A DNA stretch of 64,000 nucleotides from Candidatus Omnitrophota bacterium. Its GTDB lineage: Bacteria > Omnitrophota > Gorgyraeia > B26-G9. The position numbers and the translations under genes are program-made. Numbering within the stretch: position 1 is the stretch's first letter; every line of letters begins with the position of its first letter. The stretch is from assembly GCA_018817585.1 (NCBI GenBank), contig JAHITE010000081.1, forward strand, positions 4,549 through 68,548. Direction: 5' to 3'. The notes beneath the pieces are model-generated. The model was given only the letters and a program-made list of their open reading frames with translations. It was not told the DNA's origin and did no database searches. This document shows, piece after piece, positions 4,378 through 35,164 of the stretch.

Positions 4378-5305
4378 CAGAATTAGCTTGTGACACCAAA
4401 TAGAGTACTGCCATTCTCACCGCGATTCCATTAGTCACCTGCTCAAGAATCACGGAATAAGTCCCATCAGCAACATCCGGCATAATTTCAATCCCCCGAT
4501 TCATTGGGCCGGGATGCATTACCAATACATCTTTTTTCGCGTATTTTTCCAGCTTTTCCTTGCTCACTCCATACTGAATCGCGTATTCGCGCATTGAAGG
4601 AAACAATCCGGCTTTTTGGCGTTCTTTTTGAATCCGCAGGATATTAATCACATCCGCGCCTTTTAATGCTTTGGATAAATCCGTGGTAATATTTACTCCC
4701 ATTTTTTCAATTTCCCGCGGTAAAAGCGTTCTCGGCGCGCAAATCGTTACATTCGCTCCCAGCTTTTTCAATCCCCAGATATTGCTGCGGGCAACCCGTG
4801 AATGCGTTATATCACCGATAATCGATACATTCAAGCCTTTTATTTTACCTTTTTTTTCTTTAATCGTAAACATATCAAGCAATGCTTGCGTAGGATGTTC
4901 ATGACAGCCGTCTCCGGCATTGATAATCGACGGCCCCATGGATTCAGCCAATGTATGCATTACTCCGCTGGAAGAATGTCGGAGAATAATCGCGTCGACT
5001 TTCATCGCTTCAATGTTTTTAAAAGTATCTTTCAGGGTCTCGCCTTTTTGAATCGCGCTGGTTGATGTGGCAATACTCAAAGTATCCGCACTTAACCTTT
5101 TTGCTGCCAGTTCAAAACTTGTTCTCGTCCTAGTTGACGGTTCAAAGAAGAATAGTACAATTGTCTTGCCGCGCAAAGTCGGTACTTTTTTAACTGAGCG
5201 GGTGGAAACTTCTTTAAACGATCCAGCTGTTTGCAGAATCAACTCAATTTCCTGCGCGGACAATTCCTCAAGTCCCAAAAGATCTTTTCTTGTCCATTCA
5301 TTCAT
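4361..5305 (-). CDS. pyrB: Aspartate carbamoyltransferase catalytic subunit
   Basis: STRTRTSFE carbamoyl-phosphate-binding motif; HPTQAL; 314 aa. Confidence 0.9.
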
Positions 5306-5856
5306 TGGCGTTTTTCCTTTTGATTGATTAAAACTATCTCATCTTTTCCATCTTCCTCAACTAATCTGACCTCTACATTTTCCTTCAAGGTTGTCGGTAA
5401 GTTCTTGCCCACATAATCCGCTCTGATCGGCAGCTCGCGGTGTCCGCGGTCAATCAATACAGCCAGCTGAATATTCTGCGGTCTGCCCAGATCAATCAGT
5501 TCATCCAAAGCGCAGCGAATCGTTCTGCCGGTAAACAAAACATCGTCAACTAAAACAATCTTTTTATCATCGATATCAAAATCAACTTTGGTGCTGTGCA
5601 CAACCGGACAGTAATCAATCATCGTTAGATCATCGCGGTAAAGAGTTATATCCATTATTCCCACCGGAACATCTGAGCCATCGATTTCTTTGATCAAATC
5701 AGCGATTCTCTGGGCAAGATAGGCTCCCCGGCAGCGGATACCAACAATCGCCAGATCCTCAGTCCCTTTATTGCGTTCGAGTATTTCATGACTAATCCGC
5801 ATCAAAGTACGTTTTATCATCTTATCGTCCATTAGATTTGCTTCTTTTTTCAGCAT
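5302..5856 (-). CDS. pyrR: Bifunctional pyrimidine operon regulator / uracil phosphoribosyltransferase PyrR. The start was moved to the SD-supported ATG; the raw ORF extends to 5895 through the attenuator terminator.
   Basis: PRPP-binding motif [34 protein letters not shown] matches the PyrR N-terminus. AGGAG SD lies 5-6 nt before the ATG at 5854-5856. Confidence 0.85.
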
Positions 5857-5877
5857 AGGGTCTCCTTGAATTAGACA

Positions 5878-6021
5878 TAAAAAAAACCTGCTCACTTACC
5901 TCAGATCGGTATAGTTTAAGCAGGCTAAAAACATCATTTTTTGACTCCTTGCTAGTCTCTCTGGACTAATTTAAAGGTTTATCTTTATATTAAATATAGC
6001 ATAGGCCGGTATGCTTGTCAA
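5878..6021 (-). promoter_or_regulatory. pyr operon promoter and PyrR-dependent transcription attenuator.
   Basis: Sigma70-like promoter on the minus strand: -35 TTGACA (6016-6021), 17-nt spacer, -10 TATATT (~5990-5995). PyrR-binding loop GUCCAGAGAGACUAGCAAGGAGUC on the minus strand (5943-5967). Intrinsic terminator: hairpin 5886-5923 followed by T8 (5878-5885). Confidence 0.7.
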
Positions 6022-6202
6022 GATAAACTAATAAAAAAAGCGGTTCATGAAATATCTGGGTTTTGACAATATTTTGCTCTAGTTTTTGTTTTAAACTCAA
6101 TTCCTGCTGCGCGAATAAACCGGAATTTGGACAGCCAAAAACAAGAATTAAACTGAAAACTACTTTTATTATTTGATTAATCTTTATCGCGTTAATTTTC
6201 AT
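5990..6202 (-). CDS. Small putative lipoprotein (70 aa)
   Basis: Signal peptide with lipobox LVFGC. Sits between the glycan cluster and the pyr promoter. No recognisable domain. Confidence 0.35.
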   Translation of the reverse strand: MKINAIKINQIIKVVFSLILVFGCPNSGLFAQQELSLKQKLEQNIVKTQIFHEPLFLLVYLDKHTGLCYI

Positions 6203-6232
6203 TTATTGTCTTTTTCCTGCCCTAATAATATT

Positions 6233-8398
6233 TTATTTTTGCTGATCCAGCGCCATCAGTTCCAGGGCTTTTAAATGCATGGTTTTATATTCCTCATTTC
6301 GCTCCTGCTCTTTATACAATAAAGCCAGATTATAATATGCTTCCAGATAATCAGGATTAAGCTCAATTGCTTTAAGATAATCTTTTTCCGCTAAAACCAT
6401 TTGGCCAGTAGATTCATAAACCGCCGCCCGATGATTATAAACCGGAGCAAATTGCTGATCAATTAAAATAGCCTGGTTAAACACGGCTAAGGCCTGATCG
6501 GATTGGCCTAAGGCCGCATAAGCTGAACCAAGATTAACTCTGGCGCCAAGATCATTAGGATCAAGCTCCAGGACTTTATTATAAGCCAAAATTGTCTGAT
6601 CATATTTTTTCAATTTAAACAAAGCCAGGCCCTGATTATTATAGGCCGCTGAATCCGCGGGATCATGGGCAATGACCTGCTCAAATATTTTTAAAGCCGA
6701 ATCAAACTGATTATTTTCCAAATCCAAAACTCCGACATTATACAAGATATCCAGATTATCGGGATTTATTTTACAAGCCTGCTCAAAAGATTTTATCGCC
6801 TTGGCCGTCTGGCCTTTATAGCGAAAAGCCGTGCCTAAATTAAAAAACCAGCGGGATTTGTCATCCTGGGCAGCGCCAAACAGATTCAGATTGCAGTAGA
6901 TATATAAAACAAGCAAAACTAAACCATATTTTAGAAATATTCTAAAGTTCTTATTTCTTAATTTATCAAAAAGCCAAACAGCGGCATATGCCGCGTAAAT
7001 CACAAAATAAGGCACAAGCACAGCGCGATATCTGCTGACCACGAAAAATATGACCATAACCATTAAATGTGCCAGGATAAAGCAATTCAGAACCATTATT
7101 TTCTGATTGGTTTTATGCCAGGAAATAAATATTCCGAGCAAAGCCAAAGGCGCGATAACCCCAAAAGGAAAACTAATAAACCGATTGGAAAAAACCAAAA
7201 CAGTCAGCAATGATGACCATAAACGAAAAAAATAAATACTCTGGTTTTCCGGAATTTCATAAGCACTAAACAAATAAAATATTTTCCTCAGAATCAAACT
7301 AGTAAAATCCACTGGATGCTGAATAATATATTGCCCTGTTTTAAACATCCAGTAATTCGAGACCTGAGAATTATTCAAATTCTTATTAGTTTGCGATTGA
7401 GCGACTTTGATTGAAGATACCCAGACATTATCCTGCCAGCCTTGATAAGCAAAATCCCGGCTGGGCGGGGCCGCGGTTTTACCGTCAGCTAAAGGATTAT
7501 TACCAATATAAAGATTTATCCCAATGGTTGATGAAAGCAGGACAAACTCTCCGCCTTCAATCAGATTCCGCAAAGATAAGGGTAAAACACTAAGAAAAGC
7601 TCCCAGACAAAGCAGAATCAAAGGTTTAAACGCTGTTTTATTCCAGGAAAAAGGTTTATTTGTTTTTATTTTTTGGTTTACAGTCAGGGGTAACTGTTGG
7701 TCTGTTGAATTTTTATTTTCCCCATCGGCCCTAATCTCGGATAAACAATCCGCTTGCGCGAAGTGGCAACCTTGCTGTTTAGTTAGAAAATAATAAACAT
7801 AAGCGCAAAGCAAAGGCAAAAATAAAATCACATTCGGACTAGTTTGCAGACAAATCCCGAAAAAAATACCGCTGCTCAGCCATTTCCAGGGTTTTGGTTT
7901 TTCAATTGTGCTGAAGATAATTAATAACAAATTAAGATTTAAAAATATAGTCAAACCAACGCTTAAAAACTCAGCGTCAAAATAAATTAATACTCCGTAA
8001 AGCGCGCAAATAATTCCCGCAAGCAAACCAACTCTTCGACCAAACAGTTTTTTAGCCAGCAAATAAACCAGCTGACAATTGATCGAACCTAAGATCATCT
8101 GCGCGGTTTTTATGGCAAAAAAATCACTACTAAATAACCGCATCAATACAGCCAGAAAATAAACATACAGCGGTACCCGGGGAGTAACCAGCCCCTTGAG
8201 CAGCCAGTCTCCGGCTACCATTTTTTGCGCGTAGATATAATGACTAAGCGCGTCAATTACCGGCGAATCAAAAAAAGGACAATGCTGATATTGATTTAAA
8301 TAAACCAGCCGAAAAAACAAAGCCAGGATAAAAATCAGGCTGATGCTGATAAAATCAAATACGAAAAATGTTTTTTTGATATTCTGTTCTTGGTTCAT
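6233..8398 (-). CDS. Polytopic GT-C-fold glycosyltransferase (PMT_2/ArnT-like, GT39/83-type) with a C-terminal TPR-repeat domain
   Basis: About 12 N-terminal TM helices with a PMT/ArnT-like layout. The C-terminal ~230 aa contain about six TPR units (AIKSFEQACKINPDN..., ALKIFEQVIAHDP...). The start overlaps the upstream stop (ATGA). Confidence 0.6.
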   Translation of the reverse strand: MNQEQNIKKTFFVFDFISISLIFILALFFRLVYLNQYQHCPFFDSPVIDALSHYIYAQKMVAGDWLLKGLVTPRVPLYVYFLAVLMRLFSSDFFAIKTAQMILGSINCQLVYLLAKKLFGRRVGLLAGIICALYGVLIYFDAEFLSVGLTIFLNLNLLLIIFSTIEKPKPWKWLSSGIFFGICLQTSPNVILFLPLLCAYVYYFLTKQQGCHFAQADCLSEIRADGENKNSTDQQLPLTVNQKIKTNKPFSWNKTAFKPLILLCLGAFLSVLPLSLRNLIEGGEFVLLSSTIGINLYIGNNPLADGKTAAPPSRDFAYQGWQDNVWVSSIKVAQSQTNKNLNNSQVSNYWMFKTGQYIIQHPVDFTSLILRKIFYLFSAYEIPENQSIYFFRLWSSLLTVLVFSNRFISFPFGVIAPLALLGIFISWHKTNQKIMVLNCFILAHLMVMVIFFVVSRYRAVLVPYFVIYAAYAAVWLFDKLRNKNFRIFLKYGLVLLVLYIYCNLNLFGAAQDDKSRWFFNLGTAFRYKGQTAKAIKSFEQACKINPDNLDILYNVGVLDLENNQFDSALKIFEQVIAHDPADSAAYNNQGLALFKLKKYDQTILAYNKVLELDPNDLGARVNLGSAYAALGQSDQALAVFNQAILIDQQFAPVYNHRAAVYESTGQMVLAEKDYLKAIELNPDYLEAYYNLALLYKEQERNEEYKTMHLKALELMALDQQK

Positions 8399-9885
8399 GA
8401 CTTTAATATTGGAATAAGTAGTTTATGAAAAATTGTTCTAAAGAAAAACATTGGTTTTCTAAATAAGAATATATTATAATTCTGGAAAAATTTAAATGGA
8501 TTTCTTAAAAATAATTTAAGGTTATAAGTCCAATACCAGTTTCTCCGGGTTTTTTCCAAAAACCTACTGTCAAATTCCTCGGTTTCAAATTTTGACTGAA
8601 AATAATCGAGGCTTGTATCATCCAAATCATTTAAATAGCCTTTTTGCCGGCAATATTCAAAAATCCGAGTCCCGGGCAAAGGATTGGCAATAAACAAAGA
8701 CACCCTGTCCAAAGCCAGCTTGTTCATAAATTCTAAAGTCTTAAATATCTGGGCCTTTGTTTCCTGCGGAAAACCAATAATAAAAAAACCATAAGTATTT
8801 ATTTTATGCGCTTTGATTATTTTGCTTATTTCCTCAATTTGCTTTAAATCCGTTGGCTTGTTTAAAACATCGCGCAATATATTCGGATCACCGCTTTCCA
8901 CTGCCAGAGTTATTTCATAACAGCCGCTTTGCTTCATTAAGCTGATCATTTCCGGATCAAGGGTCTGAGCGGCAATGCCGTTAGGAGTGTTCCAGGTAAA
9001 ATTAAATTTACGGTCAATCATTGCTTGAAACAATTTTTTCGCCCGCGGTTTATCCAAAGTCAGATTATCATCAAAGAATTTTATTTCTTTAATCCCCATA
9101 GCCTTTAACTGGCACATTTCCTGAATTACATTTTCCACAGAACGCGGCCGATACTTTCTACCCCAAAAATGACAGGAGCTGCAAAAAGCGCATTCAAACG
9201 GACAGCCGCGGGAGGTGATCAGATTCATTGCCGGAGTCTGTCGGCTGACCAGGCCCATGGGCAAATTGATTTTATGATATTTTTCTAAGGGTAATAAATC
9301 TCTGGCGGGAAATGGAATCAGATCAATATTTTCAATCCACTGGGTCTTGGGATTTATCTGAACTATATTATTATTTCTAAACGCCAAACCATCAATCTTC
9401 GCGTAATCAGCTTTATTGCTAATCGCGGTTAAAAGATTTTTTAATGTCTCCTCCCCTTCGCCCAGAATAATAAAATCAAGCTGCTGATTCTCCAGGCATT
9501 TTTCAGCTAAAAAACTGGGGTGTGAACCGCCGACGATAGTTACAATGTTTTCGGAAATGCTTTTAATATCACGGCAGATCCGATTAACAATGCTAATCTG
9601 ACTGGAATAAAGACAAGTTATGGACACAGCATCCGGCTCGAAATCAATAATCTGCTGTTTTATCTGGCTAAAAGACAATCCATAGCGCAATAAACCATTG
9701 GCTAATCTGGTTTCCTGCGCATATCCCTCAACTGCCGCATCAAGGAGTTTAACTTGAAAATCATCGCGCAGATAAGCAGCCAGATAAGTAATTCCCAATG
9801 GCGGCATTATCTGTTTAACAGACTCCGGCGAAAAAACAACCGGAGGAAAAATTAGCATTAGTTTTTTTATGGGTCTATCAATCAT
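8395..9885 (-). CDS. B12-binding-domain radical SAM protein (class B rSAM)
   Basis: N-terminal cobalamin-binding Rossmann-like region. Radical SAM cluster motif SRGCPFECAFCSS (CxxxCxxC). 496 aa. Paralog of the next gene. Confidence 0.8.
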   Translation of the reverse strand: MIDRPIKKLMLIFPPVVFSPESVKQIMPPLGITYLAAYLRDDFQVKLLDAAVEGYAQETRLANGLLRYGLSFSQIKQQIIDFEPDAVSITCLYSSQISIVNRICRDIKSISENIVTIVGGSHPSFLAEKCLENQQLDFIILGEGEETLKNLLTAISNKADYAKIDGLAFRNNNIVQINPKTQWIENIDLIPFPARDLLPLEKYHKINLPMGLVSRQTPAMNLITSRGCPFECAFCSSCHFWGRKYRPRSVENVIQEMCQLKAMGIKEIKFFDDNLTLDKPRAKKLFQAMIDRKFNFTWNTPNGIAAQTLDPEMISLMKQSGCYEITLAVESGDPNILRDVLNKPTDLKQIEEISKIIKAHKINTYGFFIIGFPQETKAQIFKTLEFMNKLALDRVSLFIANPLPGTRIFEYCRQKGYLNDLDDTSLDYFQSKFETEEFDSRFLEKTRRNWYWTYNLKLFLRNPFKFFQNYNIFLFRKPMFFFRTIFHKLLIPILKS

Positions 9886-11419
9886 TGTCTTTATCTATTT
9901 TTTGTTTTTTATTGAAATTAAAAAAACCGACAATACCTTTTGCGATAAGCCGGAAACTCATTATCGGATGAATGAAAAATAATTTAAGATATTTTTTAAA
10001 AAACCGAAAAGGATGCCTTAGAAAAACTCTTGTTAAATAAGCATTAAAGTTCTTCTGAATAAAACTTTCAAGTTCATGGCTGGCAAATTCCTCTGTCTGA
10101 AAATAAGAACAATCATAATCCACATCATCAGCCAAAAAATCTTTTTCAATATAACCTTTTCCCTTGCACAGCTCAAACAAATCTGAACCAGGCGTTGGAT
10201 TAGCAATAAAGAAAAAAGCTCCGTCCAAATCCATTTCCTTAGCAAACTCAAAGCTTTTCAACATCTGCTGTTTTGTTTCTCCGGGAAAACCTGAAATAAA
10301 AAAAGCCATTGTCTGAATCTTAAGCTGTTTCATTTTTTTTACCAGCTGTTTTCCCTTATTCAAATCCAATGGTTTGCGAATAATATTTTTCAAAACATCC
10401 TGATCGCCGCTTTCAAAAGCAATGGTCAGTTCATAACAGCCGCTTTGACGCATCAGCTCAAGCATCGGCTCATCCAAAGTCCAAATCGCAATCCCATTAG
10501 GCGTATTCCAATGGATATTAAGTTTGCGGTCAATCAAGCCCTGAAATATGGCTTTAGCTCTTTGTTTATCAAATGTCAGATTGTCATCCGTAAACTGAAT
10601 TTCTTTTATCCCGTATTTTTTAACCAGCATTTCAATTTCATTTAAAACATTCTCCGCGGAACGCGCGCGATATTGATTACCCCAATAATTGCGTGAAGCG
10701 CAGAAAACACATTGGGCGGGACAGCCCCGACTGGTGACCACCGGAGCATTCTTGCGGCTTTTATAAGTAAAGCTGAACGGCACTGCTTTTTTTTCATAAA
10801 ATTTCATGGGCAACAGATCATAAGCCGGAAACGGAAGGCTGTCTAAATCAGCAATAAAATTCTGTTTAGGATTAATAATGATTTTATTATCTTTACGAAA
10901 AGCCAGGCCGTCAATCTGGGTATAATCTTTTCCCTGGTCAAGGGTTTTTAGTAGTTTAGAAAAACTCTCTTCTCCCTCTCCCAGAATTATAAAATCAATT
11001 AAAGCCGCGGATTCCAAGGTATGCTTTGCTAAAAAAGTCGGATGAGAACCGCCAACAACAGTGATTATCTGAGGATTCAATTTCTTAATCTTTTCTGCTA
11101 GTTTAATAACTTCATTAACCTGGCGGGAAAATAAACAAGTTATGCCAACAACCTGAGGCTTAAACTGACTTATCATGGCCACTATTTCTTCCTGTTTATA
11201 GCCGTAATAATCCCACTTACTATTTTTCGGTTTAAATGATTGGAACTTTGCCCGTCCGTCAATTATTTTAACATCAAAATCTTTTCTGATCACAGAAGCC
11301 AGATAAGCCAAACCTAAAGGCACAGAACAATGCTGAAAATTTGCAGCCAGAACTTTACCGGGCGGAGAAACAAGCATTACTTTTTTGATTTTCCTATTTA
11401 ACATTATGAATAACCACAA
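9878..11419 (-). CDS. B12-binding-domain radical SAM protein (class B rSAM), tandem paralog
   Basis: TSRGCPAQCVFCAS motif. The C-terminal FLRHPFRFFKKY parallels FLRNPFKFFQNY in 8395-9885. 513 aa. Confidence 0.8.
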   Translation of the reverse strand: MWLFIMLNRKIKKVMLVSPPGKVLAANFQHCSVPLGLAYLASVIRKDFDVKIIDGRAKFQSFKPKNSKWDYYGYKQEEIVAMISQFKPQVVGITCLFSRQVNEVIKLAEKIKKLNPQIITVVGGSHPTFLAKHTLESAALIDFIILGEGEESFSKLLKTLDQGKDYTQIDGLAFRKDNKIIINPKQNFIADLDSLPFPAYDLLPMKFYEKKAVPFSFTYKSRKNAPVVTSRGCPAQCVFCASRNYWGNQYRARSAENVLNEIEMLVKKYGIKEIQFTDDNLTFDKQRAKAIFQGLIDRKLNIHWNTPNGIAIWTLDEPMLELMRQSGCYELTIAFESGDQDVLKNIIRKPLDLNKGKQLVKKMKQLKIQTMAFFISGFPGETKQQMLKSFEFAKEMDLDGAFFFIANPTPGSDLFELCKGKGYIEKDFLADDVDYDCSYFQTEEFASHELESFIQKNFNAYLTRVFLRHPFRFFKKYLKLFFIHPIMSFRLIAKGIVGFFNFNKKQKIDKDND

Positions 11420-11558
11420 TTTTCAATATTTTAGATTAATGTTCAAGATTATAATTACCAATATGATATATGTTTACAATTCTAACACAATCTTTTTGAT
11501 TACACAAACTGGTTTATTTGACTTTATTGATTAGTTATGCTAAAGTACGATTACAAAA

Positions 11559-12974
11559 ATGAATATCGCGCTAATCCGTCCCCCAAAAATTACCGGAGCA
11601 TTTGAAAAAATCCTGATTCAGGAACCGATAAATCTTGTTTATTTAGCTGCTTTTTTAAATGCCAACGGATTTAATACTGTGATTTGGGATTTTGAAGTTG
11701 AGCAATTTTCCCAGCAAATTATAGCGCGAAGAATTGCTGACAATAATATTTCAATTGCCGGCATTACTTCCATGACTCCAACAATCAATAACGCGCATAA
11801 TATCGCTAATTTAATTAAACTCATAAATCCCGCGATTGTAACTATTGCCGGCGGAGCACATGTTTCCGCAATCCCCGAGCAGAGTTTAAACGAATTTCCG
11901 GGATTTGATTATCTGGTTTTGCGCGAAGGTGAAATCGCTTTGCTCAAACTCTGCCAAAGCATCAGAGATAAAAAGTCAGCTGATAAAATCAGCGGCCTGG
12001 CTTTTTTAAAGAACAAACAAGCGGTGATAAATCATCCAGCGGAAGAAATTGAGGATTTAGACAGCCTGCCCTTTCCAGACCGGAAGCTTTTAAACCGCGA
12101 TTTATACAAAAACATGTACGCCGCCGGAATTAACATCAGCAATAAACGCGCGACTGTTGTCTTTACTTCCCGCGGCTGTTCTCAAGACTGCACATTCTGT
12201 GCTGTTAAAAAAACCAGCGGCCCTAAAGTCAGATTCCGCAGCGCGGAAAATGTTATTGCTGAATTAAAGCAATGCAAAGACATGGGCTATAATCATATTA
12301 CTTTTGAAGATACCAATTTAACCTTAAATCAGCAAAGATTTATTCAAATCTGCAATGGCTTAAAAATATTGGGATTGACTTGGGATTGTCAGACAAAAGT
12401 CAACATGGTCAACAAACAGCTAATATCTCTGATGAAAGACTGCGGCTGTTTAAAAATTGCTTACGGTGTTGAATCCGGCAGTCCTAAGATCTTAAAACTG
12501 ATGAAGAAAAACATTACGCTTGAGCAGATAAAACAAGCATTTGAACTTACGCATCAAGCCGGAATTGTTACCTGTGCTTTCTTTATCTTAGGTTCGCATC
12601 CTGAAGAAACAGCCCAAGACATTAAACTGACTGAGCAAATAATAAAAAAAATCAAACCTGATGTATTTCAGCTAGGAATTATCTGTCCCTACCCCGGCAC
12701 AGAAATTTATGATATTATGCAGGAATACGGTTTAATCAAAGACATTGACTGGAATAAATTTAATTTCATGCATTCTGTTCCGCCCTGGGGCACAAAACAT
12801 TTAACAGCCCAACAATTAGTCAAATTTCAAAAACAAATCTATACCCGTTATTTATTCAGCTGGCATTTTATCGGTTTTTTCTGCAGAAAGATGCTCAATC
12901 CCAAACAACTGCCGCAACTATGCAAGCTCTCATTTTACATGCTAAAGTATTTGCTTTTTGAGAAAAGGAATTAA
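11559..12974 (+). CDS. B12-binding-domain radical SAM protein (class B rSAM)
   Basis: TSRGCSQDCTFCAV motif. Divergently transcribed from 9878-11419. Upstream -35 TTGACT, 17-nt spacer, -10 TAAAGT. 471 aa. Confidence 0.8.
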   Translation: MNIALIRPPKITGAFEKILIQEPINLVYLAAFLNANGFNTVIWDFEVEQFSQQIIARRIADNNISIAGITSMTPTINNAHNIANLIKLINPAIVTIAGGAHVSAIPEQSLNEFPGFDYLVLREGEIALLKLCQSIRDKKSADKISGLAFLKNKQAVINHPAEEIEDLDSLPFPDRKLLNRDLYKNMYAAGINISNKRATVVFTSRGCSQDCTFCAVKKTSGPKVRFRSAENVIAELKQCKDMGYNHITFEDTNLTLNQQRFIQICNGLKILGLTWDCQTKVNMVNKQLISLMKDCGCLKIAYGVESGSPKILKLMKKNITLEQIKQAFELTHQAGIVTCAFFILGSHPEETAQDIKLTEQIIKKIKPDVFQLGIICPYPGTEIYDIMQEYGLIKDIDWNKFNFMHSVPPWGTKHLTAQQLVKFQKQIYTRYLFSWHFIGFFCRKMLNPKQLPQLCKLSFYMLKYLLFEKRN

Positions 12975-12985
12975 TTCTTAGCAAA

Positions 12986-13175
12986 GGACACAAGGTCACC
13001 AGGATCACAATGTCACCAGGTTAAAATCTTTAATAGAATTCCTAGTGAAATCCGCTTTTTTTAAGTTCTAAAATATTCTCGAATTTTTATCATAAGTTTT
13101 GGCAACTTGTAACTTTTCTTGCTTTATGCTTTTTCCTTGTGACCTTGTGTGCTTGTGACCTGGTATCCTTGTGTC
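12986..13175. repeat. Degenerate inverted-repeat element built from GGTCACCAGG / CAAGGTCAC units, between convergent genes. Possible bidirectional terminator or REP-like element.
   Basis: Arm 12986-13021 (ggacacaaggtcaccaggatcacaatgtcaccaggt) is an imperfect reverse complement of arm 13135-13175. The same core motif recurs at 41370-41395. Confidence 0.5.
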
Positions 13176-13180
13176 TGTTT

Positions 13181-13930
13181 TTACCTTCTTAACTTTTCTT
13201 TTACAATTAATTTCAAATATCCAAAAATTGTATCAAACACCTTCATCTTGCTTTTGCCAGTGCGCAAATCAAACCGAAGAGTAAGCGGCACTTCGCTGAT
13301 ATTAGGATTAAATCTGCGCAGTTTGATCAGAATTTCCGCCATGCAGGCAAAACCACCCTGCTCAATAAAACTATCCTGATAAACCTCCTCTGCTTTTTGC
13401 AGCAGCCCTATTTTATAAGCTCGAAAAAAAGTCGAGTAATCTCTTGCTCCTTGGATTCCAAAACAAACTTTCAAGAACCAGTTAATAGCATCGCTCATAA
13501 TCAGCCGGATAAACGGCAGATTCACGGTTGTGCTCTGGGCATGGTATCTTGAAGCAATCGCCAGATCGCAGCCGGAATTTATAGCATCAATCATCCGCGG
13601 TAAAACATTTGCCGGGTGAGTCTGATCACAATCCATAGAGATAAGAATATCCTCAGGCTGAGCTTTAGCGCAAAGAGTTTTAATCCCCTGCCGAAATACC
13701 TGCCCTACTCCCTGATTCTGGACAAAAGAAATTAATTCCAGAGGAAATTTTTGGATATTCGCTGAGACAATCTCAGCGGTATTATCAGTGCTGCCGTCAT
13801 TAACCACCAATATCCTGAATTGTTTTTTTGCCTGAGTTAAAACAGCGGCTATATTGCTCACTATTTGTTCAATGTTTTTCGCTTCATTAAATGCCGGCAG
13901 CAGAATGTAAACCATTATTTCCCTTTCCAA
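13181..13930 (-). CDS. Family 2 glycosyltransferase, polyprenyl-phosphate sugar transferase-like (DPM1/ArnC-like)
   Basis: LLPAFNEAKNIEQIV...LVVNDGSTDNTAEI GT-A signature; DCDQTHP motif; 249 aa. Confidence 0.75.
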   Translation of the reverse strand: MEREIMVYILLPAFNEAKNIEQIVSNIAAVLTQAKKQFRILVVNDGSTDNTAEIVSANIQKFPLELISFVQNQGVGQVFRQGIKTLCAKAQPEDILISMDCDQTHPANVLPRMIDAINSGCDLAIASRYHAQSTTVNLPFIRLIMSDAINWFLKVCFGIQGARDYSTFFRAYKIGLLQKAEEVYQDSFIEQGGFACMAEILIKLRRFNPNISEVPLTLRFDLRTGKSKMKVFDTIFGYLKLIVKEKLRR

Positions 13931-14813
13931 TTAAGATTAAATCCTCGGTTGTCATTACCTGTGAATGAACAGCGAGTTTTTTAACTATCTGCTCACAAAT
14001 CAGCTGTCTTTTGGTTAAGGACTTAAACCCTGGTAATCTTACGGAATAAGCCTCCAGGTCCAGCAGATCAATAGCGTGAAAAACATAATGCAGGGTTAAT
14101 TTATTTTTCAAGCAAAAATTAAACCCTGAATCAAACAAAAATTTACCTAGCGTAAAAACATAGGTACTATGCATCGGAAAACGCAAAACATTGCTGACAC
14201 TGACCGGAACCTCTTTAATTTTCATTGCTCCGGGGTTTGCCATATTCTGTTTATCCGGATGATAAATTCCGCGGGGAGCCTTGCCCCAGCGAATATTGCC
14301 GCAGTTGATCCACAATAGCTTTAATTTTAACAGAGAATGCGCTGTACTCATCAGCCAGGGAAAAACCGCGGAAGGCATAAGCGAAGCATCATACTTATAA
14401 CCCAGGTCTTCCAGTAAACATAATACCTGTTCATTAATGCAGAACATCGGCGCGCGAAAACCAACCGGATCTTTAGACATAAGCGCTTTAAGCAAATTAT
14501 GCGCTAAAACAATTTCCTGTTTTATTTCAGTCAAACTCAGGTCAGCAAAATCCGGCAGATGATTCATACTGTGATTGGCGATTTCATGCCCTTGATCGAT
14601 TATGGTTTTAATATACTTGATTTGTTTATGATTCTCCGCGTCTTTGCCAATAACAAAAAACGTGGCTTTTACTTTGTACTTGGCAAACAGATCGAGAAAA
14701 GACTGCAGACTTTGTGAATATACCGGGTCAACCGGATATTCAGACATTTGTTTATACCGATAGCGATCATATGTCCATAAACTGTCTAAATCGACTTGGA
14801 TTGTTGAAAGCAT
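13887..14813 (-). CDS. NodB-family polysaccharide deacetylase / deformylase (ArnD-like)
   Basis: HEIANHSMNH motif of the NodB homology domain; 308 aa. Confidence 0.7.
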   Translation of the reverse strand: MLSTIQVDLDSLWTYDRYRYKQMSEYPVDPVYSQSLQSFLDLFAKYKVKATFFVIGKDAENHKQIKYIKTIIDQGHEIANHSMNHLPDFADLSLTEIKQEIVLAHNLLKALMSKDPVGFRAPMFCINEQVLCLLEDLGYKYDASLMPSAVFPWLMSTAHSLLKLKLLWINCGNIRWGKAPRGIYHPDKQNMANPGAMKIKEVPVSVSNVLRFPMHSTYVFTLGKFLFDSGFNFCLKNKLTLHYVFHAIDLLDLEAYSVRLPGFKSLTKRQLICEQIVKKLAVHSQVMTTEDLILIGKGNNGLHSAAGI

Positions 14814-14825
14814 AATTCTCTCAGA

Positions 14826-16070
14826 TTAAACTTTAAATTCTTTTTTAATTCTCTGTCTGATTATCGCGCTTTTTATCAGCGAAGTATTGATAGTTTTTAA
14901 AAGCTGCGGCAAATACATTAAATCCGGAAGATATAAGCCATTAAACGATTCTACCGCGCCGTAAAGTTTAGCCACAAATTTCTGGGTGAATACCGGTTCA
15001 ACATTGAGATCATAATGAAAAGTTTTTTGCCTGATCCATTGCTGATTAAATTCCGGATTTATCTTTTTTAAAGAATCACAGCAGGCATTAAACATCTCCT
15101 GCTCGAGCTGCGGCGTAACAGATTGATTGCGCAGATAAAAAGTAAAATATGTCCGATTTTCATTGTTCAGCGGCTGAGTATTAACCACTACATGCCTTTT
15201 TTCCCGCTGATCATCAACCAGACAAATCCAGCATTTTTGATTAAGCGGTTTATTCAGATCCAATACCCAAGACCCGACACTAAGGTATTCCGACACATAA
15301 AATCCCGGATTACCGACAAACAAAGCCGCGGCATCAGTCAAAGAAATACAGGCAATAACCAGATCATATTCTTCCGCTCCGGTATCTAAAATCACCTGCC
15401 ATTTATTTTGCCCATCGCGCGTTATTTTTTTAACTTTTGAATTCAGCCAGATATGAGTTTTATTTTTATGCAGCCTGTCTCGTAAAGCGATTAGCAGAGT
15501 ATGCATTCCACCCTGAAGCGTGCCAATAATATTATTTTTTCTTTCTTTAAGCCGCGCCTTTAAATACATGGCGCTGATATCGTCTGTTTGCTGAGTTTTA
15601 AAATTAAGCAAAGGCTTAAATAAAAGATTAAACGCGGCAATCCCGCATTGTTCAATAATCCACTCTTCAGCATTTTTATCATTTAGTTCAATATTCATTT
15701 TTGAAAAAAGATTTTCTGCTAAAAATTTTCCGGTTTTAAGTTTGTCGATAATGCTGAGACTCTTGATCGCGAATAAATCACAGGGATTGCTTAAATCCTG
15801 GAGCTGGTCATTAATAAACAAACATTGCCCTGATTTCGCCCAAGAAACCTTTCGATTTATTCCCAGCTCTGAAAACAACTCCATCAATTCTTTATCCGAC
15901 TTGGAAAAGAAATGATTGTATTTATCAATATATTTGCCGTCTGATTCAAACCCGGAGCATAATCCGCCGATCTGCTTGGTTTGCTCATAAACAGTTACTT
16001 GATGTTTTGCTGATAATTTATACGCGTTTACTAGACCGCTGATTCCGGCTCCGATTATAGCTATCTTCAC
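14826..16070 (-). CDS. FAD/NAD(P)-binding oxidoreductase (amine-oxidase / phytoene-desaturase-like fold)
   Basis: MKIAIIGAGISGLVNAYKL...VYEQTKQIGGLCSG dinucleotide-binding motifs; 414 aa. Confidence 0.65.
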   Translation of the reverse strand: MKIAIIGAGISGLVNAYKLSAKHQVTVYEQTKQIGGLCSGFESDGKYIDKYNHFFSKSDKELMELFSELGINRKVSWAKSGQCLFINDQLQDLSNPCDLFAIKSLSIIDKLKTGKFLAENLFSKMNIELNDKNAEEWIIEQCGIAAFNLLFKPLLNFKTQQTDDISAMYLKARLKERKNNIIGTLQGGMHTLLIALRDRLHKNKTHIWLNSKVKKITRDGQNKWQVILDTGAEEYDLVIACISLTDAAALFVGNPGFYVSEYLSVGSWVLDLNKPLNQKCWICLVDDQREKRHVVVNTQPLNNENRTYFTFYLRNQSVTPQLEQEMFNACCDSLKKINPEFNQQWIRQKTFHYDLNVEPVFTQKFVAKLYGAVESFNGLYLPDLMYLPQLLKTINTSLIKSAIIRQRIKKEFKV

Positions 16071-16072
16071 AA

Positions 16073-17509
16073 TTACTTAGACTCCTTTAAGATTTTAGAC
16101 ACTTTCAGGCTATTAGCCCCTTTTATTACTGAATACCCCATTTTACAAATTGCTTTTATCTTTTCAAGACTATTTAATTTCTTAATCTGCTGCCAAATAT
16201 ACTTGGGCCGCAAATAAAACTTTTTCAAGGCATAATCACGCAGCTGCCAGATTTCTTGTCTGCTCAAGATTTGATTATCAATAACCGGATACATTGTCCG
16301 GTCAAAGTTTTTAATACTAGAGATTAAAGGATCCATTGCTTCTAATTGTTTACGCAATAGCGATCCATAATCCGGAACATACACTGAAAATGCCGCATAA
16401 TCACAATTAAGCTCACAGGCAAAATTAATACTCTTTTTAATGCTTTGGGCATCTTCACCAGGCAAACCAATAATAAAGAAACCAATTGTTTCCAGTGCCA
16501 ACTGTTTACAAATCAAAAAACAGCGCCTAACCTGCTGATTACTGATCGGTTTAGCCATTTTTTTCAGCAATTGCTCATTCTGGGTCTCAATTCCAAACTG
16601 AATTGTATGCGCTCCGGCTTTTTTCATTAAGATTGCCGTATCAATATCAAAACAATCTACTCGGGTCAAGCAATCCCAGCTCAGGCGAAGATCAGCATCA
16701 AGCATTGCCTGACAAAGCTTTCGCGCGTGCTCTTGATCAGCAGTAAAGGTGAAATCCGGAAAATGCACCTCAGATATACCCAAAGCTTTGATTGCTTTTA
16801 GCTCAAGAATAATATTATCAATATTTCTTAATTTAAAGCCAATCGAACCGCTGGAACAATAAGTACAACCATATTTACAGCCATAAGAAATCAAACAACA
16901 GGTAAAAGGCCTTTTTCTGGCTTGCGGCAGATAATATTTATCCAACGCGAAAAGTTCATGTCTGGGTACAGGATAAGAAAAACCAGTGTTTAGTTCAAGA
17001 ACATCGCATTGCTCAATAATCTGCTTATTTGCTTTAGCGCAAAGACCTTGATACGGCCCTGGCTTTTCCCGTAAATAATCAACAATCCCGAATTTTATAT
17101 AATCAATAATTACAGCATCAATAAAATCATGCTGTTTTAGATATTTTTTCGAATTATCCCGAGTAAAACCGGCATTTATAACAATAATTGTTTTACTCCG
17201 CGCTTTGATTGCTTTAAACAGCGCGAAATCCTCATCCATGCTCGCGCTGGAACTAAGGCTGATCAAAGCATAATAAGAACTGCTGATGATTTTTTCAATT
17301 AGTGTTTTTTCATCTACGGCCTCAGCAATAGCATCACATACCTCAAGCTCAAAATGCTCAGATAAAATACCACTTAAAACCAGTAAATCCACAGCCGGCC
17401 AATAATAATCCGCTTTTGTTGCCGAGCTGCAATACTGATCCCGAAGAAATTTTCGGCTGCCTGGAGGATTTAACAGCAATATTTTTTTCATTTTGGCATA
17501 GTATAGCAT
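16073..17509 (-). CDS. B12-binding-domain radical SAM protein (class B rSAM)
   Basis: ISYGCKYGCTYCSS CxxxCxxC motif; N-terminal B12-binding-like region; 478 aa. First gene of the minus-strand sub-operon, ending 2 bp before the FAD oxidoreductase. Confidence 0.75.
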   Translation of the reverse strand: MLYYAKMKKILLLNPPGSRKFLRDQYCSSATKADYYWPAVDLLVLSGILSEHFELEVCDAIAEAVDEKTLIEKIISSSYYALISLSSSASMDEDFALFKAIKARSKTIIVINAGFTRDNSKKYLKQHDFIDAVIIDYIKFGIVDYLREKPGPYQGLCAKANKQIIEQCDVLELNTGFSYPVPRHELFALDKYYLPQARKRPFTCCLISYGCKYGCTYCSSGSIGFKLRNIDNIILELKAIKALGISEVHFPDFTFTADQEHARKLCQAMLDADLRLSWDCLTRVDCFDIDTAILMKKAGAHTIQFGIETQNEQLLKKMAKPISNQQVRRCFLICKQLALETIGFFIIGLPGEDAQSIKKSINFACELNCDYAAFSVYVPDYGSLLRKQLEAMDPLISSIKNFDRTMYPVIDNQILSRQEIWQLRDYALKKFYLRPKYIWQQIKKLNSLEKIKAICKMGYSVIKGANSLKVSKILKESK

Positions 17510-17582
17510 ATTTTCACTCTTGATTCAAATTTTGTTTGCAAAACGTAACTTGATTAAAACAATAAGTTAATATATAATTAGC

Positions 17583-19013
17583 TTGGAGGAACTAATGCCC
17601 TTACAACAAAAACTGTTTCAAAAACAAGTTCAAAAAATGATCATGTCTGCAAAAATGCAGCAGTCCATGCATATTTTACAGTTAAATGTTGTTGAGATTG
17701 ATCAATTAATCGCTGAGGAAATGGCTGTAAATCCTGTATTGGAAGACACATCCCTTCAGGAATCCAGCGATGTAAACAAAGAAGTCACCGAAAGCTCTAC
17801 CGAAGATCTGCCCAAAATCCGCGATCAGGAAAATATCAGCCTGGAACCAGATTGGCTGGACAATGATAATGTCTGGTTTTCTGACTTTTTTGACCGGGGA
17901 AAAATTTCCCAGTCAATTGAAAAACATAATTTCCAGGAAACCATGATTACCAGTACTTCTTCTTTGCAGGATGAATTAATGCAGCAGTTTCGGATCATGG
18001 CGGAAAACGATGAGGATTTATTAATCGCGGAGCACATAATCGGTAATATCGCGGAAAACGGATATCTCGTAACCAGTGTTGAGGAAATCAGCCAGGCAAA
18101 TAGTTTTTCCTTAGATAAAGTTAATCAAGTGCTATCAATTATTCAGGGCCTGGAACCCGCTGGGATTGGAGCCAGAGATTTAAGAGAATGTCTGCTTATT
18201 CAGCTCAAACGCCAGGGTAAGGAAAATTCTATTGAATCCATGATCGTGGAAAAATACCTCAAGGAACTAGCAGCAAAAAAATACAGTTTGATCAGCAGTG
18301 AATTAAAATTACCCCTGCCTCAGGTCAAAAAATACGCGCTAAGAATTAGCGCGCTTGATCCCAAGCCTTGCCGCGGCTTTGCCGCTGAGGCCTTGAGCAT
18401 TGTCCCGGATGTTATTCTGGAAAAAGCAGCTGATAGATACGAAGTGATTATTAATTCTAAAAACTTACCCAAGCTTTCGATTAGTCAGCTTTATAAAAAA
18501 ATGCTCAAAGAGAAAAAATGTGAAAAAGAAGCTTTAGCCTTTATCCGGGAAAAACTGCAGAACGCGCAGAATCTGATCAATGGTTTAAGCCAAAGAGAAC
18601 AAACGCTTGAGCGTGTATCAAAATGCATTATTGAATATCAGCAGGAATTTATTGAAAAAGGAGTGTCAAATCTAAAGCCTCTGACGCTGAAAGAAGTCGC
18701 GGAAAAACTGGAAGTCCATCCTTCGACAATCAGCAGAACCGTGGCTAATAAATACATGCAGACTCCTTATGGAACGTTTGCTTTAAAAAAATTCTTTTCC
18801 CAGGCAATCAGCACTGAACAAGGTTCGCTTTCCAATCAAAACATCAAAGCCGCGATTGATGAATTAGTAAAAACCGAACCCGCGGGTAAGCCATTAAGCG
18901 ATCAGGAAATTGTAAGTTTACTCGCGGAAAAAGGAATGCCGATTTCCCGCAGAACCGTAACCAAATACCGCAATGCTTTAAAAATTCCCGCGGCGCATTT
19001 ACGGCGAAAATAA
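17583..19013 (+). CDS. rpoN: RNA polymerase sigma-54 factor
   Basis: Gln/Leu-rich region I at the N-terminus. C-terminal RpoN box ISRRTVTKYRNALKIP. HTH motif VAEKLEVHPSTISR. 476 aa. Confidence 0.9.
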   Translation: MEELMPLQQKLFQKQVQKMIMSAKMQQSMHILQLNVVEIDQLIAEEMAVNPVLEDTSLQESSDVNKEVTESSTEDLPKIRDQENISLEPDWLDNDNVWFSDFFDRGKISQSIEKHNFQETMITSTSSLQDELMQQFRIMAENDEDLLIAEHIIGNIAENGYLVTSVEEISQANSFSLDKVNQVLSIIQGLEPAGIGARDLRECLLIQLKRQGKENSIESMIVEKYLKELAAKKYSLISSELKLPLPQVKKYALRISALDPKPCRGFAAEALSIVPDVILEKAADRYEVIINSKNLPKLSISQLYKKMLKEKKCEKEALAFIREKLQNAQNLINGLSQREQTLERVSKCIIEYQQEFIEKGVSNLKPLTLKEVAEKLEVHPSTISRTVANKYMQTPYGTFALKKFFSQAISTEQGSLSNQNIKAAIDELVKTEPAGKPLSDQEIVSLLAEKGMPISRRTVTKYRNALKIPAAHLRRK

Positions 19014-20258
19014 ATTCCAAAACCCCACATTCTTTGACCAGGAAATATTAGTAAATTCATCAGCGATAACCGCTATCTTCTCTTTAGTTTTTCCATCGGA
19101 GCTCATTATCCAGAGCTGCGCGGTATTATCCTGATTGTATAACGGCAGAACTAAACTGAATATTTTACCTTCATTGATCCATTCCGGCCTTTTAGCCGCA
19201 GTCGGAATCTGAATTTCCTCACTACCATCGGCATTCATCACCGTGATTCCTTCGGATTCAAAAGCGATTTTATTATTTACTGACCAATCAAGCATCCCGG
19301 TTTTCGGATTATCAAAAGAAAGTTTTTTAATTTCTAAAGAATATATATCTCCTACCCAAATATTATTTTCACCGGAAAACGCGATCTTTGTCCCTCCGGG
19401 TGACCAGGCGAAATTCCCTTTGCAGCCCAGGTCATCAGAAGTAAGCTTACGCAAATCTTTGCCATCCTGATTCATAATCCAGATCTGCCCGGCTCTTAAA
19501 AAAGCCAGGTATAACCCATCGGCTGACCAATTCAGATATTTGATTTTAGTTGGCTCAAAAAAAGATGTCAGTTGGCGAACTATCTTGCTTTTCAAATCAA
19601 CAGTATAAATATTAGCGCATCCGGCATCATTCGTGCCGATAAACGCGATCAGATCAGTTAAAGGATTGGCTTCGGCAAAAGAAGCGTCATAAATCGGATC
19701 TTTTTCCACCAGATTTTCATTAGTCTGACCATTTGTGTCTATTTTCCAAAGCTGTCCTTGATAATCATAAATAATCAGCGTATTATCCAGTGCCCAAACC
19801 GGATGAAAGCCCTTCACCTTTAGTTCTTTAACATTACCGTTAATGCTAATCAGATTAATATTACCATTTGGCCCAATACAGACACCTTGCGCTGGAGTAG
19901 AGAAATAAGTGACAGCTAAAGGAACTCCGTCCTTTGATTTTACATCCGGAGTAAAAGTAACAAAATATGATGTCGAAGCCAGTAAAGGATCATTCGGAGT
20001 AAAAACAAATGTATTATTATCCCAAACAGCCTTACCTCTTATCTCCGGATAGATATTAAAACTTTTACTCACGGCTTTTTTATCCATTCGGGTATTAAAG
20101 GTTATCCTGATCATAGAATCAGTACTGACATCAGTTTGCCCGTATTGCGGAGAAACTGAGACAATCACCGGTATTTGGTTTTCCGCGAAAGCGGTTAAAA
20201 CATTTCCGAGCATTAGTAAAACAATAAAAATAATTATCCGATATTTATTAAATTTCAT
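18999..20258 (-). CDS. Secreted protein with an N-terminal Ig-like domain and TolB-like (PD40/WD40-like) beta-propeller repeats
   Basis: Signal peptide; SbsA/Big-like segment; repeated ...DG..IAF.. propeller-blade pattern; 419 aa. Confidence 0.55.
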   Translation of the reverse strand: MKFNKYRIIIFIVLLMLGNVLTAFAENQIPVIVSVSPQYGQTDVSTDSMIRITFNTRMDKKAVSKSFNIYPEIRGKAVWDNNTFVFTPNDPLLASTSYFVTFTPDVKSKDGVPLAVTYFSTPAQGVCIGPNGNINLISINGNVKELKVKGFHPVWALDNTLIIYDYQGQLWKIDTNGQTNENLVEKDPIYDASFAEANPLTDLIAFIGTNDAGCANIYTVDLKSKIVRQLTSFFEPTKIKYLNWSADGLYLAFLRAGQIWIMNQDGKDLRKLTSDDLGCKGNFAWSPGGTKIAFSGENNIWVGDIYSLEIKKLSFDNPKTGMLDWSVNNKIAFESEGITVMNADGSEEIQIPTAAKRPEWINEGKIFSLVLPLYNQDNTAQLWIMSSDGKTKEKIAVIADEFTNISWSKNVGFWNLFSP

Positions 20259-20285
20259 TTCAATGTTCTCTCTTTTTCTTGGTTG

Positions 20286-21731: not shown

Positions 21732-22078
21732 TGTTCATAAGCATAATCTAAAATTCTTTGTCTGTCATCCGGCTCAATCTCATTGATTCTTAAACCCGCG
21801 TCATAATTATAAGTCCAATCCTCAGCACTTTTTCTAATCCAAACAACCTGCCCTTGAGCGAAAATCGGGATTATAGAACCGGGAATCCAAATTTCCAGTT
21901 TTAATAACTGTCCAACCGGAATATTCCGGTTCAGAGAAGCTTTCAAGCCTTCTCGATTAAAATTCATCAACATTACTAAACCGTTCTTAGCGTCTTCAGT
22001 TTGAAAAGTACCTTCTAAAAATGCCCCCAGGCGCAGGTATCTTCTCTTTTCATTATAATCAGTCATCAAAGCCTCCAT
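21704..22078 (-). CDS. PilZ-domain protein (c-di-GMP receptor-like)
   Basis: RRYLRL (RxxxR) plus an N.NREG variant of the D.S..G motif; 124 aa. Confidence 0.55.
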   Translation of the reverse strand: MEALMTDYNEKRRYLRLGAFLEGTFQTEDAKNGLVMLMNFNREGLKASLNRNIPVGQLLKLEIWIPGSIIPIFAQGQVVWIRKSAEDWTYNYDAGLRINEIEPDDRQRILDYAYEHWRYSRGKV

Positions 22079-22385
22079 AAGAATATATGATCTTAATAAT
22101 TATTTAAACAGCATATACTCCGGTTCAAACTAATCACTTATTTTATCATATCCTCAGGATAAATCAAACAGAAAGCATGAAAAAGTATACTTAGCTGACA
22201 GCTGATGGCTCATGGTTAAAAACAGAGAACAGAAAAAGCAACAAGCAGGAAAAGCTAACCGTAGGGGCGCTGCTTGCCTGCGCCCGATTATCAATTATTT
22301 AACCGATTTTAATAATTTATATTATACGGGCCGGGACAAGCACGGCCCCTACATTTCAACTTTACAAACTGCCCCTTCTCATTTT

Positions 22386-35160: not shown

Positions 35161-35164
35161 ATAA

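Follow-up and report, generated by a model that had tools for sequence, protein, structure and literature searches.

With modest confidence, we propose that a cluster of eight genes in an Omnitrophota genome encodes an Arn-like pathway of the three-component type, building and tailoring a lipid-linked amino sugar. The genes occupy positions 6233-17509 of the window, by which we mean the whole 64,000-nucleotide stretch of Candidatus Omnitrophota bacterium DNA that was analysed (GenBank assembly GCA_018817585.1, contig JAHITE010000081.1, positions 4,549 to 68,548 of the forward strand); unless a locus of another genome is named, all coordinates are those of the window. An open reading frame (ORF) map and a Pfam scan confirmed the eight ORFs, which encode a family 2 glycosyltransferase (GT2), a NodB-family deacetylase of carbohydrate esterase family 4 (CE4), a flavin adenine dinucleotide (FAD) oxidoreductase, four radical S-adenosylmethionine enzymes (rSAM1 to rSAM4) and a membrane glycosyltransferase of the GT-C type joined to tetratricopeptide repeats (TPR):

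6233-8398, minus strand: GT-C/TPR transferase, 721 residues (Pfam PMT_2 and TPR); last gene of the rSAM2-rSAM1-GT-C/TPR unit
8395-9885, minus strand: rSAM1, 496 residues (Pfam B12-binding 2.7e-25, Radical_SAM 9.2e-21)
9878-11419, minus strand: rSAM2, 499-513 residues (Pfam B12-binding 2.1e-25, Radical_SAM 2.6e-20)
11420-11558: divergent intergenic region between rSAM2 and rSAM3, 139 bp
11559-12974, plus strand: rSAM3, 471 residues (Pfam B12-binding 5.2e-21, Radical_SAM 9.5e-22)
13181-13930, minus strand: GT2, 244-249 residues (Pfam Glycos_transf_2 3.6e-21)
13887-14813, minus strand: NodB/CE4 deacetylase, 308 residues (Pfam Polysacc_deac_1 4.8e-22)
14826-16070, minus strand: FAD oxidoreductase, 414 residues, soluble (Pfam Amino_oxidase/FAD)
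16073-17509, minus strand: rSAM4, 478 residues (Pfam Radical_SAM 8.7e-16); first gene of the rSAM4-FAD-NodB-GT2 unit

The decisive evidence that these genes belong together comes from a survey of 88 loci around NodB homologs. Three of them, with unrelated flanks, carry NodB, a PMT_2 GT-C and a B12-type rSAM resembling HpnJ:

L087, 7041-15534: PMT_2, B12-rSAM, NodB, FemAB, GT2, Epimerase_2, formyltransferase, DegT, GFO/IDH ... flippase
L007, an archaeal metagenome-assembled genome, 8144-14059: B12-rSAM, Polysacc_synt flippase, PMT_2, NodB, two FemAB, DegT; then GT2 and Epimerase_2
L003, a marine Omnitrophota, 9974-19209: NodB, PMT_2, carbamoyltransferase, B12-rSAM, rSAM/SPASM, B12-rSAM, second carbamoyltransferase

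A GT2 and a 2-epimerase are present in two of the three (L087 and L007). HpnJ is the best NCBIfam model for three of the four rSAMs tested from these contexts (270, 161 and 200 bits), and for the second L003 rSAM BchE comes first and HpnJ second. The window enzyme closest to the best NodB-adjoining rSAM in L003, L007, L015 and L087 is rSAM3, at 27-32% identity. The position of the FAD gene is held in L087, L007 and L003 by amine-acting enzymes (FemAB, carbamoyl- or formyl-transferase), which fits the idea that an amine freed by NodB serves as the handle for tailoring. DegT aminotransferases are further substitutes for the FAD enzyme in these variants. The genes are not distributed independently of one another; in syntenic and in non-syntenic contexts alike, the cluster or the core of it is found again.

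Within the window, the arrangement of the genes points the same way for part of the cluster. A sequence-only reading had described eight tightly packed genes with an ATGA overlap at 8395-8398 and an 8-bp overlap at 9878-9885, and the genes and both overlaps stand at those coordinates: the 4-bp ATGA shared by rSAM1 and GT-C (8398-8395) was read directly in the sequence, and the letters of the 8-bp overlap between rSAM2 and rSAM1, ATGATTGA at 9885-9878, were checked. Since the genes overlap, rSAM2, rSAM1 and GT-C are indicated to be translationally coupled. The gap between rSAM4 and the FAD gene is 2 bp. The cluster is not a single co-directional run, as rSAM3 lies alone on the plus strand and creates both the 139-bp divergent gap at 11420-11558 and a 206-bp convergent gap at 12975-13180. 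Because of its opposite orientation there are probably three transcription units, namely rSAM4-FAD-NodB-GT2, rSAM3, and rSAM2-rSAM1-GT-C/TPR. The start codon is ambiguous in two genes: for rSAM2, independent gene calling chose ATG 11377 (499 residues) over TTG 11419, and for the GT2 ATG 13915 (244 residues) over TTG 13930. The NodB and GT-C/TPR proteins are 100% identical to NCBI entries that bear the name of the Omnitrophota phylum.

The assignment of the GT2 is supported by its closest solved relatives. Its top seven sequence matches in the PDB are all polyprenyl-phosphate glycosyltransferases, of the dolichol-phosphate mannose synthase (DPMS), ArnC and GtrB kinds; the best is P. furiosus Dol-P-Man synthase (5mlz, 2.1e-23, residues 2-238), followed by three ArnC sequences and GtrB. 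A DCD motif, the DxD of the family, aligns to the DAD of DPMS. On account of these relatives we class the protein as a DPM1/ArnC-type polyprenyl-phosphate glycosyltransferase, the signature that the sequence-only reading had seen in it, and its score on the ArnC equivalog model NF007986 (NCBIfam) is 59.1 bits against a cut-off of 529, which is not reached. A hydrophobic-segment scan found no transmembrane (TM) segment in the GT2. Human DPM1 and mycobacterial PpgS resemble it in this.

The identification of a NodB-family deacetylase was likewise borne out, by the Polysacc_deac_1 match and by invariant catalytic residues. The CE4 motifs are present as D8/D10, H81-S-M-N-H85, F-R-A-P122 and H246, and a comparison of 30 homologs shows no variation at D8, D10, H81, H85, P122 or H246. 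These motifs mark the deacetylase as intact; the scan found no signal peptide, TM or hydrophobic segment in NodB, which places it in the cytoplasm. Its best PDB matches are generic CE4 deacetylases; no ArnD-named chain was among the PDB matches and no ArnD model matched in NCBIfam at E<=1e-3. The FAD oxidoreductase, also recognised in the sequence-only reading and confirmed by Pfam Amino_oxidase/FAD, belongs to the amine-oxidase, protoporphyrinogen-oxidase and phytoene-desaturase superfamily. Like all four rSAMs, it has no TM segment in the scan.

The one membrane protein of the set is the polytopic GT-C fused to TPR repeats, an earlier description that agrees with the PMT_2 match, with ArnT as best structural match and with the repeats themselves. 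Its GT-C domain has a PMT_2/ArnT-like fold with about 11 predicted TM helices (eight segments in the hydrophobic-segment scan), followed by a TPR array at about residues 514-720. The match of the predicted structure to ArnT is a similarity at fold level, and the GT-C domain by itself drew no matches when its sequence was searched against the PDB. The invariant Asp49 sits in the first periplasmic loop, so that the acidic residue of the first extracytoplasmic loop is present. From the 11 predicted helices and the positive-inside rule, the TPR array would be periplasmic.

All four rSAMs match PF04055 Radical_SAM and carry the CxxxCxxC motif, as GCPFECAFC, GCPAQCVFC, GCSQDCTFC and, in rSAM4, GCKYGCTYC. 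The sequence-only reading had counted four class-B (cobalamin) enzymes. This holds for rSAM1, rSAM2 and rSAM3, which match PF02310 B12-binding at 75-89 bits, and not for rSAM4 by the same measure, PF02310 being matched neither by rSAM4 nor by its four orthologs examined (L082, L084, L085 and L088). The GGxH of rSAM1-3 is replaced in the rSAM4 orthologs by N(A/G)GF(T/L)R, and the four aligned orthologs are 52-53% identical. Because the hhalign alignment of rSAM4 to rSAM3 runs from one end to the other (probability 100%, E 4e-46, residues 9-460), the N-terminal domain of rSAM4 is, on sequence comparison, a divergent, Rossmann-like homolog of the B12 domain. AprD4 provides an example of a B12-like domain without cobalamin.

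The family scores of the rSAMs divide between two models. The paralogs rSAM1 and rSAM2 (41-43% identity in cross-lineage matches) are closest in NCBIfam to the Sden_1168-family P-methyltransferase, at 334 and 326 bits with a cut-off of 575, and score 160 and 207 bits on HpnJ; the PDB relatives of rSAM2 are 9ccb, AprD4 and TokK. For rSAM3 and rSAM4 the best model is HpnJ (TIGR03471), at 207 and 145 bits with a cut-off of 577.6. HpnJ is the proposed ring-contracting enzyme acting on a deacetylated glucosaminyl lipid, and not a methylase (PMC13459092). Judged by these similarities, the chemistry could be either C-methylation or an HpnJ-like rearrangement. Phosphonate or phosphinate chemistry, which the Sden_1168 similarity might have suggested, was considered and rejected: no phosphoenolpyruvate mutase or phosphonate gene was found among the window ORFs scanned, and the scores fall under the cut-off.

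The whole cluster, in the same gene order, is found in five further Omnitrophota loci, which amount to four distinct gene-order contexts. NodB identity to the window is 71% in L002, 52% in L082/L083 (one protein on two contigs), 43% in L084, 44% in L085 and 41% in L088. Homologs of NodB at or above 40% identity form 31 distinct clusters at 90% identity, and all of those with a named source are from Omnitrophota or the 'PVC group'. Compared with their L084 counterparts, the window rSAMs show 52-63% identity (rSAM3 63%), RpoN 60%, NodB 44% and FAD 37%. As the rSAMs are about as well conserved as RpoN, and better than NodB and FAD, they are under strong constraint. L084 carries two extra B12-type rSAMs (13249-16246, plus strand) between rSAM3 and rSAM2, making six; the best NCBIfam models for these two are BchE and a ladderane-associated lipid B12-rSAM family, both far under cut-off.

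We propose a model that starts from domain and fold identities, intact catalytic motifs, the soluble or membrane location of the proteins and the recurrent association of their genes. From there it extends by inference to the carrier lipid and its sugar, the sequence of reactions, the chemistry of every tailoring enzyme, the acceptor and the periplasmic placing of the TPR array. At the cytoplasmic face, the TM-less GT2 would put an N-acetylhexosamine on polyprenyl phosphate, the sugar probably being N-acetylglucosamine (GlcNAc) or N-acetylmannosamine (ManNAc) from a uridine diphosphate (UDP)-sugar, with ManNAc hinted at because of the association with a 2-epimerase. The cytoplasmic NodB would then strip the N-acetyl group and free the amine. 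The FAD enzyme and the four rSAMs would remodel the lipid-linked sugar, by C-methylation, a radical rearrangement of the HpnJ type or both, and by a single flavin-dependent oxidation. A flippase encoded elsewhere would translocate the modified lipid-linked sugar, and the GT-C would move the sugar to an extracytoplasmic acceptor, probably selected by the TPR array. The acceptor would most likely be a protein, given the TMTC/PMT-like architecture, and otherwise an envelope glycan or lipid.

This model shares its logic with the Arn pathway, in which an N-acylated amino sugar is loaded on polyprenyl phosphate by a GT2, deacylated in the cytoplasm to free its amine, and transferred by a GT-C at the periplasmic face. 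Earlier, the cluster had been likened to an ArnC/ArnD/ArnT triad, and this stands as an analogy, through the relatives of the GT2, the GT-C fold and the NodB motifs, and falls as orthology, no Arn equivalog cut-off being reached. Unlike Arn, neither the cluster nor its flanking genes hold ArnA/ArnB sugar-nucleotide genes or an ArnE/F flippase by Pfam; the window GT-C has a TPR array not found in ArnT; the cluster further includes four rSAMs and an FAD enzyme; and NodB is not ArnD-like. Bordetella LgmA/B/C and Francisella FlmF/NaxD/FlmK are relatives of the Arn system.

Other systems offer likenesses to particular parts. Three-component extracytoplasmic glycosylation systems (PMC11127046, PMC7389260) combine a GT-C with a GT2 from the DPMS/GtrB/ArnC clade, as the window does; those known have a GtrA-type flippase and transfer an unmodified monosaccharide, whereas the window cluster has no flippase gene and its sugar is predicted to be deacetylated and tailored on the lipid. 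The eukaryotic protein O-mannosyltransferases TMTC1-4 and PMT (PMC7801869) resemble the window protein in the order of a PMT-clan GT-C domain and a C-terminal TPR array and in a conserved acidic residue in the first lumenal or periplasmic loop, and they use polyprenyl-phosphate-sugar donors, as is predicted here. The window protein differs in being bacterial, in having no sequence identity detectable by PDB sequence search and in a predicted donor that is a tailored amino sugar and not mannose. With class-B sugar and phosphinate methylases (such as the Sden_1168/PhpK P-methyltransferases and TokK), rSAM1 and rSAM2 share the architecture of a B12-binding and an rSAM domain; they score 326-334 bits on the Sden_1168 model, and TokK is among their PDB relatives. 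They differ in falling under every family cut-off and in their predicted substrate, a lipid-linked sugar. GenK is a class-B (cobalamin) rSAM that methylates a sugar.

Several observations weigh against the proposed pathway. Every protein scores below every NCBIfam equivalog cut-off (ArnC 59 of 529 bits, HpnJ 207 of 577.6, Sden_1168 334 of 575), so that functions are assigned by family-level analogy only. No flippase of the GtrA, ArnE/F, Wzx or SMR-like kind was found among the ORFs of 5800-17700. In the Omnitrophota loci, the flanks (rpoN, Big_5/beta-propeller, pyruvate kinase, PilZ and pyrR-B-C) are conserved along with the cluster, and because of this the synteny within Omnitrophota is by itself weak evidence of linkage. 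In other phyla (L089 and L090), homologs roughly 30% identical to the PMT_2+TPR fusion have no GT2, NodB or rSAM neighbours; since these distant homologs stand alone, the fusion family as such is not tied to this pathway. Finally, an HpnJ-type ring contraction by rSAM3 or rSAM4, if it occurred here, would yield a product without an anomeric centre, which would be no donor for a GT-C. Either these HpnJ-like enzymes do something else, for example C-methylation, or a head-group model like that of HpnI/K/J applies.

That head-group model is the alternative that survives best, although we regard it as unlikely. According to it, the GT2 glycosylates a resident membrane lipid, NodB deacetylates the sugar and the HpnJ-like rSAMs turn it into a carbocyclic (cyclitol-type) or methylated head group that is kept on the lipid, the GT-C/TPR protein being separate or accessory. 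The succession of GT2, deacetylase and B12-type rSAM parallels that of HpnI, HpnK and HpnJ on lipid-linked GlcNAc, HpnJ is the best named family for rSAM3 (207 bits) and rSAM4 (145 bits) and for three of the four rSAMs from independent contexts, and calditol synthase Cds sets a second precedent for ring contraction by an rSAM on a glycolipid (PMC13459092). Even so, all of the HpnJ scores lie far under 577.6. No HpnI appears among the matches of the GT2, whose closest solved relatives are polyprenyl-phosphate glycosyltransferases. HpnK is a YdjC-family enzyme, unlike the NodB/CE4 deacetylase of the window. No hopanoid or terpenoid-cyclase Pfam match was found among the window ORFs scanned. The model also leaves unexplained why the GT-C gene is coupled to the rSAM genes through ATGA and lies near NodB in three independent contexts.

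It is improbable, in our judgement, that two separate systems merely lie side by side, an Arn-like module of GT2, NodB, FAD and GT-C next to unrelated class-B rSAMs acting on a lipid, cofactor or peptide, held together by genome order. Genome order is indeed conserved beyond the cluster, the flanks being as syntenic as the cluster in all full-cluster loci. The GT2-FAD-NodB triad also occurs across many phyla where no neighbouring rSAM was detected, and the number of rSAMs varies, with two more in L084. Set against this, B12-rSAMs lie beside a PMT_2 GT-C and a NodB of this family under entirely different flanks in L003, L007 and L087; the rSAM1/GT-C and rSAM2/rSAM1 overlaps speak for translational coupling; and rSAM4 heads the FAD-NodB-GT2 unit across a 2-bp gap.

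A Pga/Ica/Pel-type exopolysaccharide system, in which the GT2 polymerises N-acetylhexosamine and NodB partly deacetylates it outside the cell, draws on weak NCBIfam matches of the GT2 to PgaC/IcaA (8e-14) and of NodB to an XrtA-system polysaccharide deacetylase (4e-19) and deserves almost no credence, as a TM-less GT2 of 244 residues is ruled out as a processive membrane synthase, the GT2 aligns over its full length to DPMS, NodB lacks both a signal peptide and a TM segment, and no porin, export or cyclic-di-GMP receptor component is found in the cluster.

Beyond Omnitrophota, the pathway we favour would share its core with a wider module. The GT2-FAD-NodB triad is present in 29 of the 88 loci, from at least eight phyla, 23 of them in the genome contig set. 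It is spread over Verrucomicrobia, Acidobacteria, Flavobacteriaceae, Rhizobiales, Rhodobacterales, Melioribacteraceae, Eisenbacteria and Chloroflexota. Among the 23 triad loci, the neighbour that recurs most often is a 2-epimerase (15 of 23); of all 88 loci, 20 have a UDP-GlcNAc 2-epimerase no more than 8 kb from NodB, L007 and L087 included. A membrane protein of 6-12 TM segments lies within 9 kb in 20 of the 22 scanned triad loci outside the Omnitrophota cluster, mostly as the adjoining gene. Pfam matched one of nine such proteins to GT87 (6e-15), gave sub-threshold matches to PMT_2 for two, to a TMEM260-like family for two and to DUF6594 for one, and had no match for the remaining three.

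The module, made up of UDP-GlcNAc 2-epimerase, GT2, FAD and NodB and apparently uncharacterised, is found in L029, L031, L036-L038, L040, L043, L045, L049-L059, L069, L072, L076, L077, L080 and L081 (about 5000-13000 in each). Its FAD oxidoreductase is PRK07233-like. In the Acidobacteria version, the GT2 carries a second NodB+DUF3473 domain as a fusion. The module is also present in the cultivable strains Maribacter arenosus, Aquamicrobium zhengzhouense and a Ruegeria sp., and in Nannocystis-type relatives.

The window has a 2-epimerase of its own, about 13 kb outside the cluster:

30271-31404, minus strand: UDP-N-acetylglucosamine 2-epimerase, WecB-type (Pfam Epimerase_2 8.4e-122)

It is possible that this enzyme supplies UDP-ManNAc and is a member of the pathway. 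Between it and a 905-residue ORF at 26750-29467 (minus strand), for which Pfam gave only a weak helix-hairpin-helix match, lies a 208-residue ORF at 29525-30151 with no Pfam match. Farther along, another rSAM gene, without a B12 domain (34135-35160, minus strand), adjoins an ATP-dependent DNA ligase (35165-36895); near this pair (34135-36895, minus strand) are an RmlD-type reductase (37354-38286) and a GH94-like protein of 906 residues (38643-41363).

As for regulation, the divergent region 11420-11558 probably serves as a bidirectional promoter region, with sigma-70-like matches at 11476-11448 (minus strand) and 11518-11546 (plus strand) that are consensus matches only. An Rfam scan of the whole window at gathering thresholds found no RNA element, including no cobalamin riboswitch. 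At permissive thresholds the one credible match was a sub-threshold PyrR site outside the cluster (E 5.8e-4), the other match having E 0.4, and a cobalamin riboswitch or other RNA element within the cluster was rejected. On the other side of rSAM4 stands the gene whose proximity had drawn attention in the sequence-only reading:

17583-19013, plus strand: rpoN, across a 73-bp divergent gap from rSAM4

The proximity is real, and a regulatory link did not hold up, as sigma-54 matches occur at chance level: TGGCAC-N5-TTGC was matched 47 times with 49.5 expected, and no match lies in an intergenic region of the cluster. Control by sigma-54 through the adjoining rpoN was accordingly rejected. From rpoN onward, a block at 17583-24795 consists of rpoN, a Big_5/beta-propeller protein (Tricorn/TolB-like), pyruvate kinase, PilZ and an ABC_tran_2/ABC transporter, and its order is kept in L082, L084, L085 and L088, whose NodB orthologs are 41-52% identical. 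It is speculative to view the periplasmic-looking Big_5/beta-propeller protein (18999-20258) as a candidate acceptor.

The downstream boundary of the cluster is firm and is set by the promoter and PyrR leader of the pyr genes. A near-consensus sigma-70-like promoter (11 of 12) at 6021-5993 (minus strand) stands ahead of a PyrR-binding leader at 5877-5981 (minus strand; RF00515, 46.6 bits with a gathering score of 54, E 5.8e-4), where the pyrR-pyrB-pyrC operon (5895-3082) begins. The only additional ORF in 5800-17700, of 70 residues at 5990-6202 (minus strand), was considered as a flippase or lipoprotein partner and rejected; it is unannotated at the matching position in L082, L085 and L088 and overlaps the pyr promoter and leader, so that a genuine partner gene is improbable here. 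Its N-terminus is hydrophobic and is accompanied by a lipobox-like 'VFGC', and the gene calls for this contig in ENA sample ERZ27247128 include it.

Literature searches on the gene combination, on the GT2-FAD-NodB-WecB module and on Omnitrophota rSAM clusters found no paper describing them, and the sequence-only reading, too, knew of no described pathway with this combination. Nor did any paper found report that rSAMs and a flavoenzyme tailor an amino sugar on its carrier ahead of a TMTC-like GT-C. Tentatively, and as a possibility that we do not think likely, the cluster could represent an undescribed form of envelope glycosylation, in which three to six B12-type rSAMs and a flavoenzyme remodel a carrier-linked hexosamine and a TMTC-like GT-C/TPR enzyme glycosylates periplasmic or surface proteins. 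Such remodelling might methylate several carbons, oxidise the hexosamine at its amine or close to it, or rearrange the skeleton by radical chemistry. The cell surface would then carry a highly unusual branched or alkylated amino sugar. The same envelope route may exist in variant form in some archaea and other uncultivated lineages.

Omnitrophota are ultrasmall, largely uncultivated bacteria, and to our knowledge their envelope is essentially unknown. If the pathway we favour is correct, the Arn and three-component paradigm would gain tailoring by class-B rSAMs at the carrier stage. The flavoenzyme would emerge as a widespread core partner of GT2 and NodB in many phyla, one that is so far uncharacterised. 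The wider module of WecB, GT2, FAD and NodB, usually with an adjoining polytopic membrane protein, makes this chemistry tractable in cultivable bacteria. The favoured pathway would also hint at surface-sugar chemistry new to Omnitrophota, and several orphan B12-rSAM families would acquire concrete substrates.

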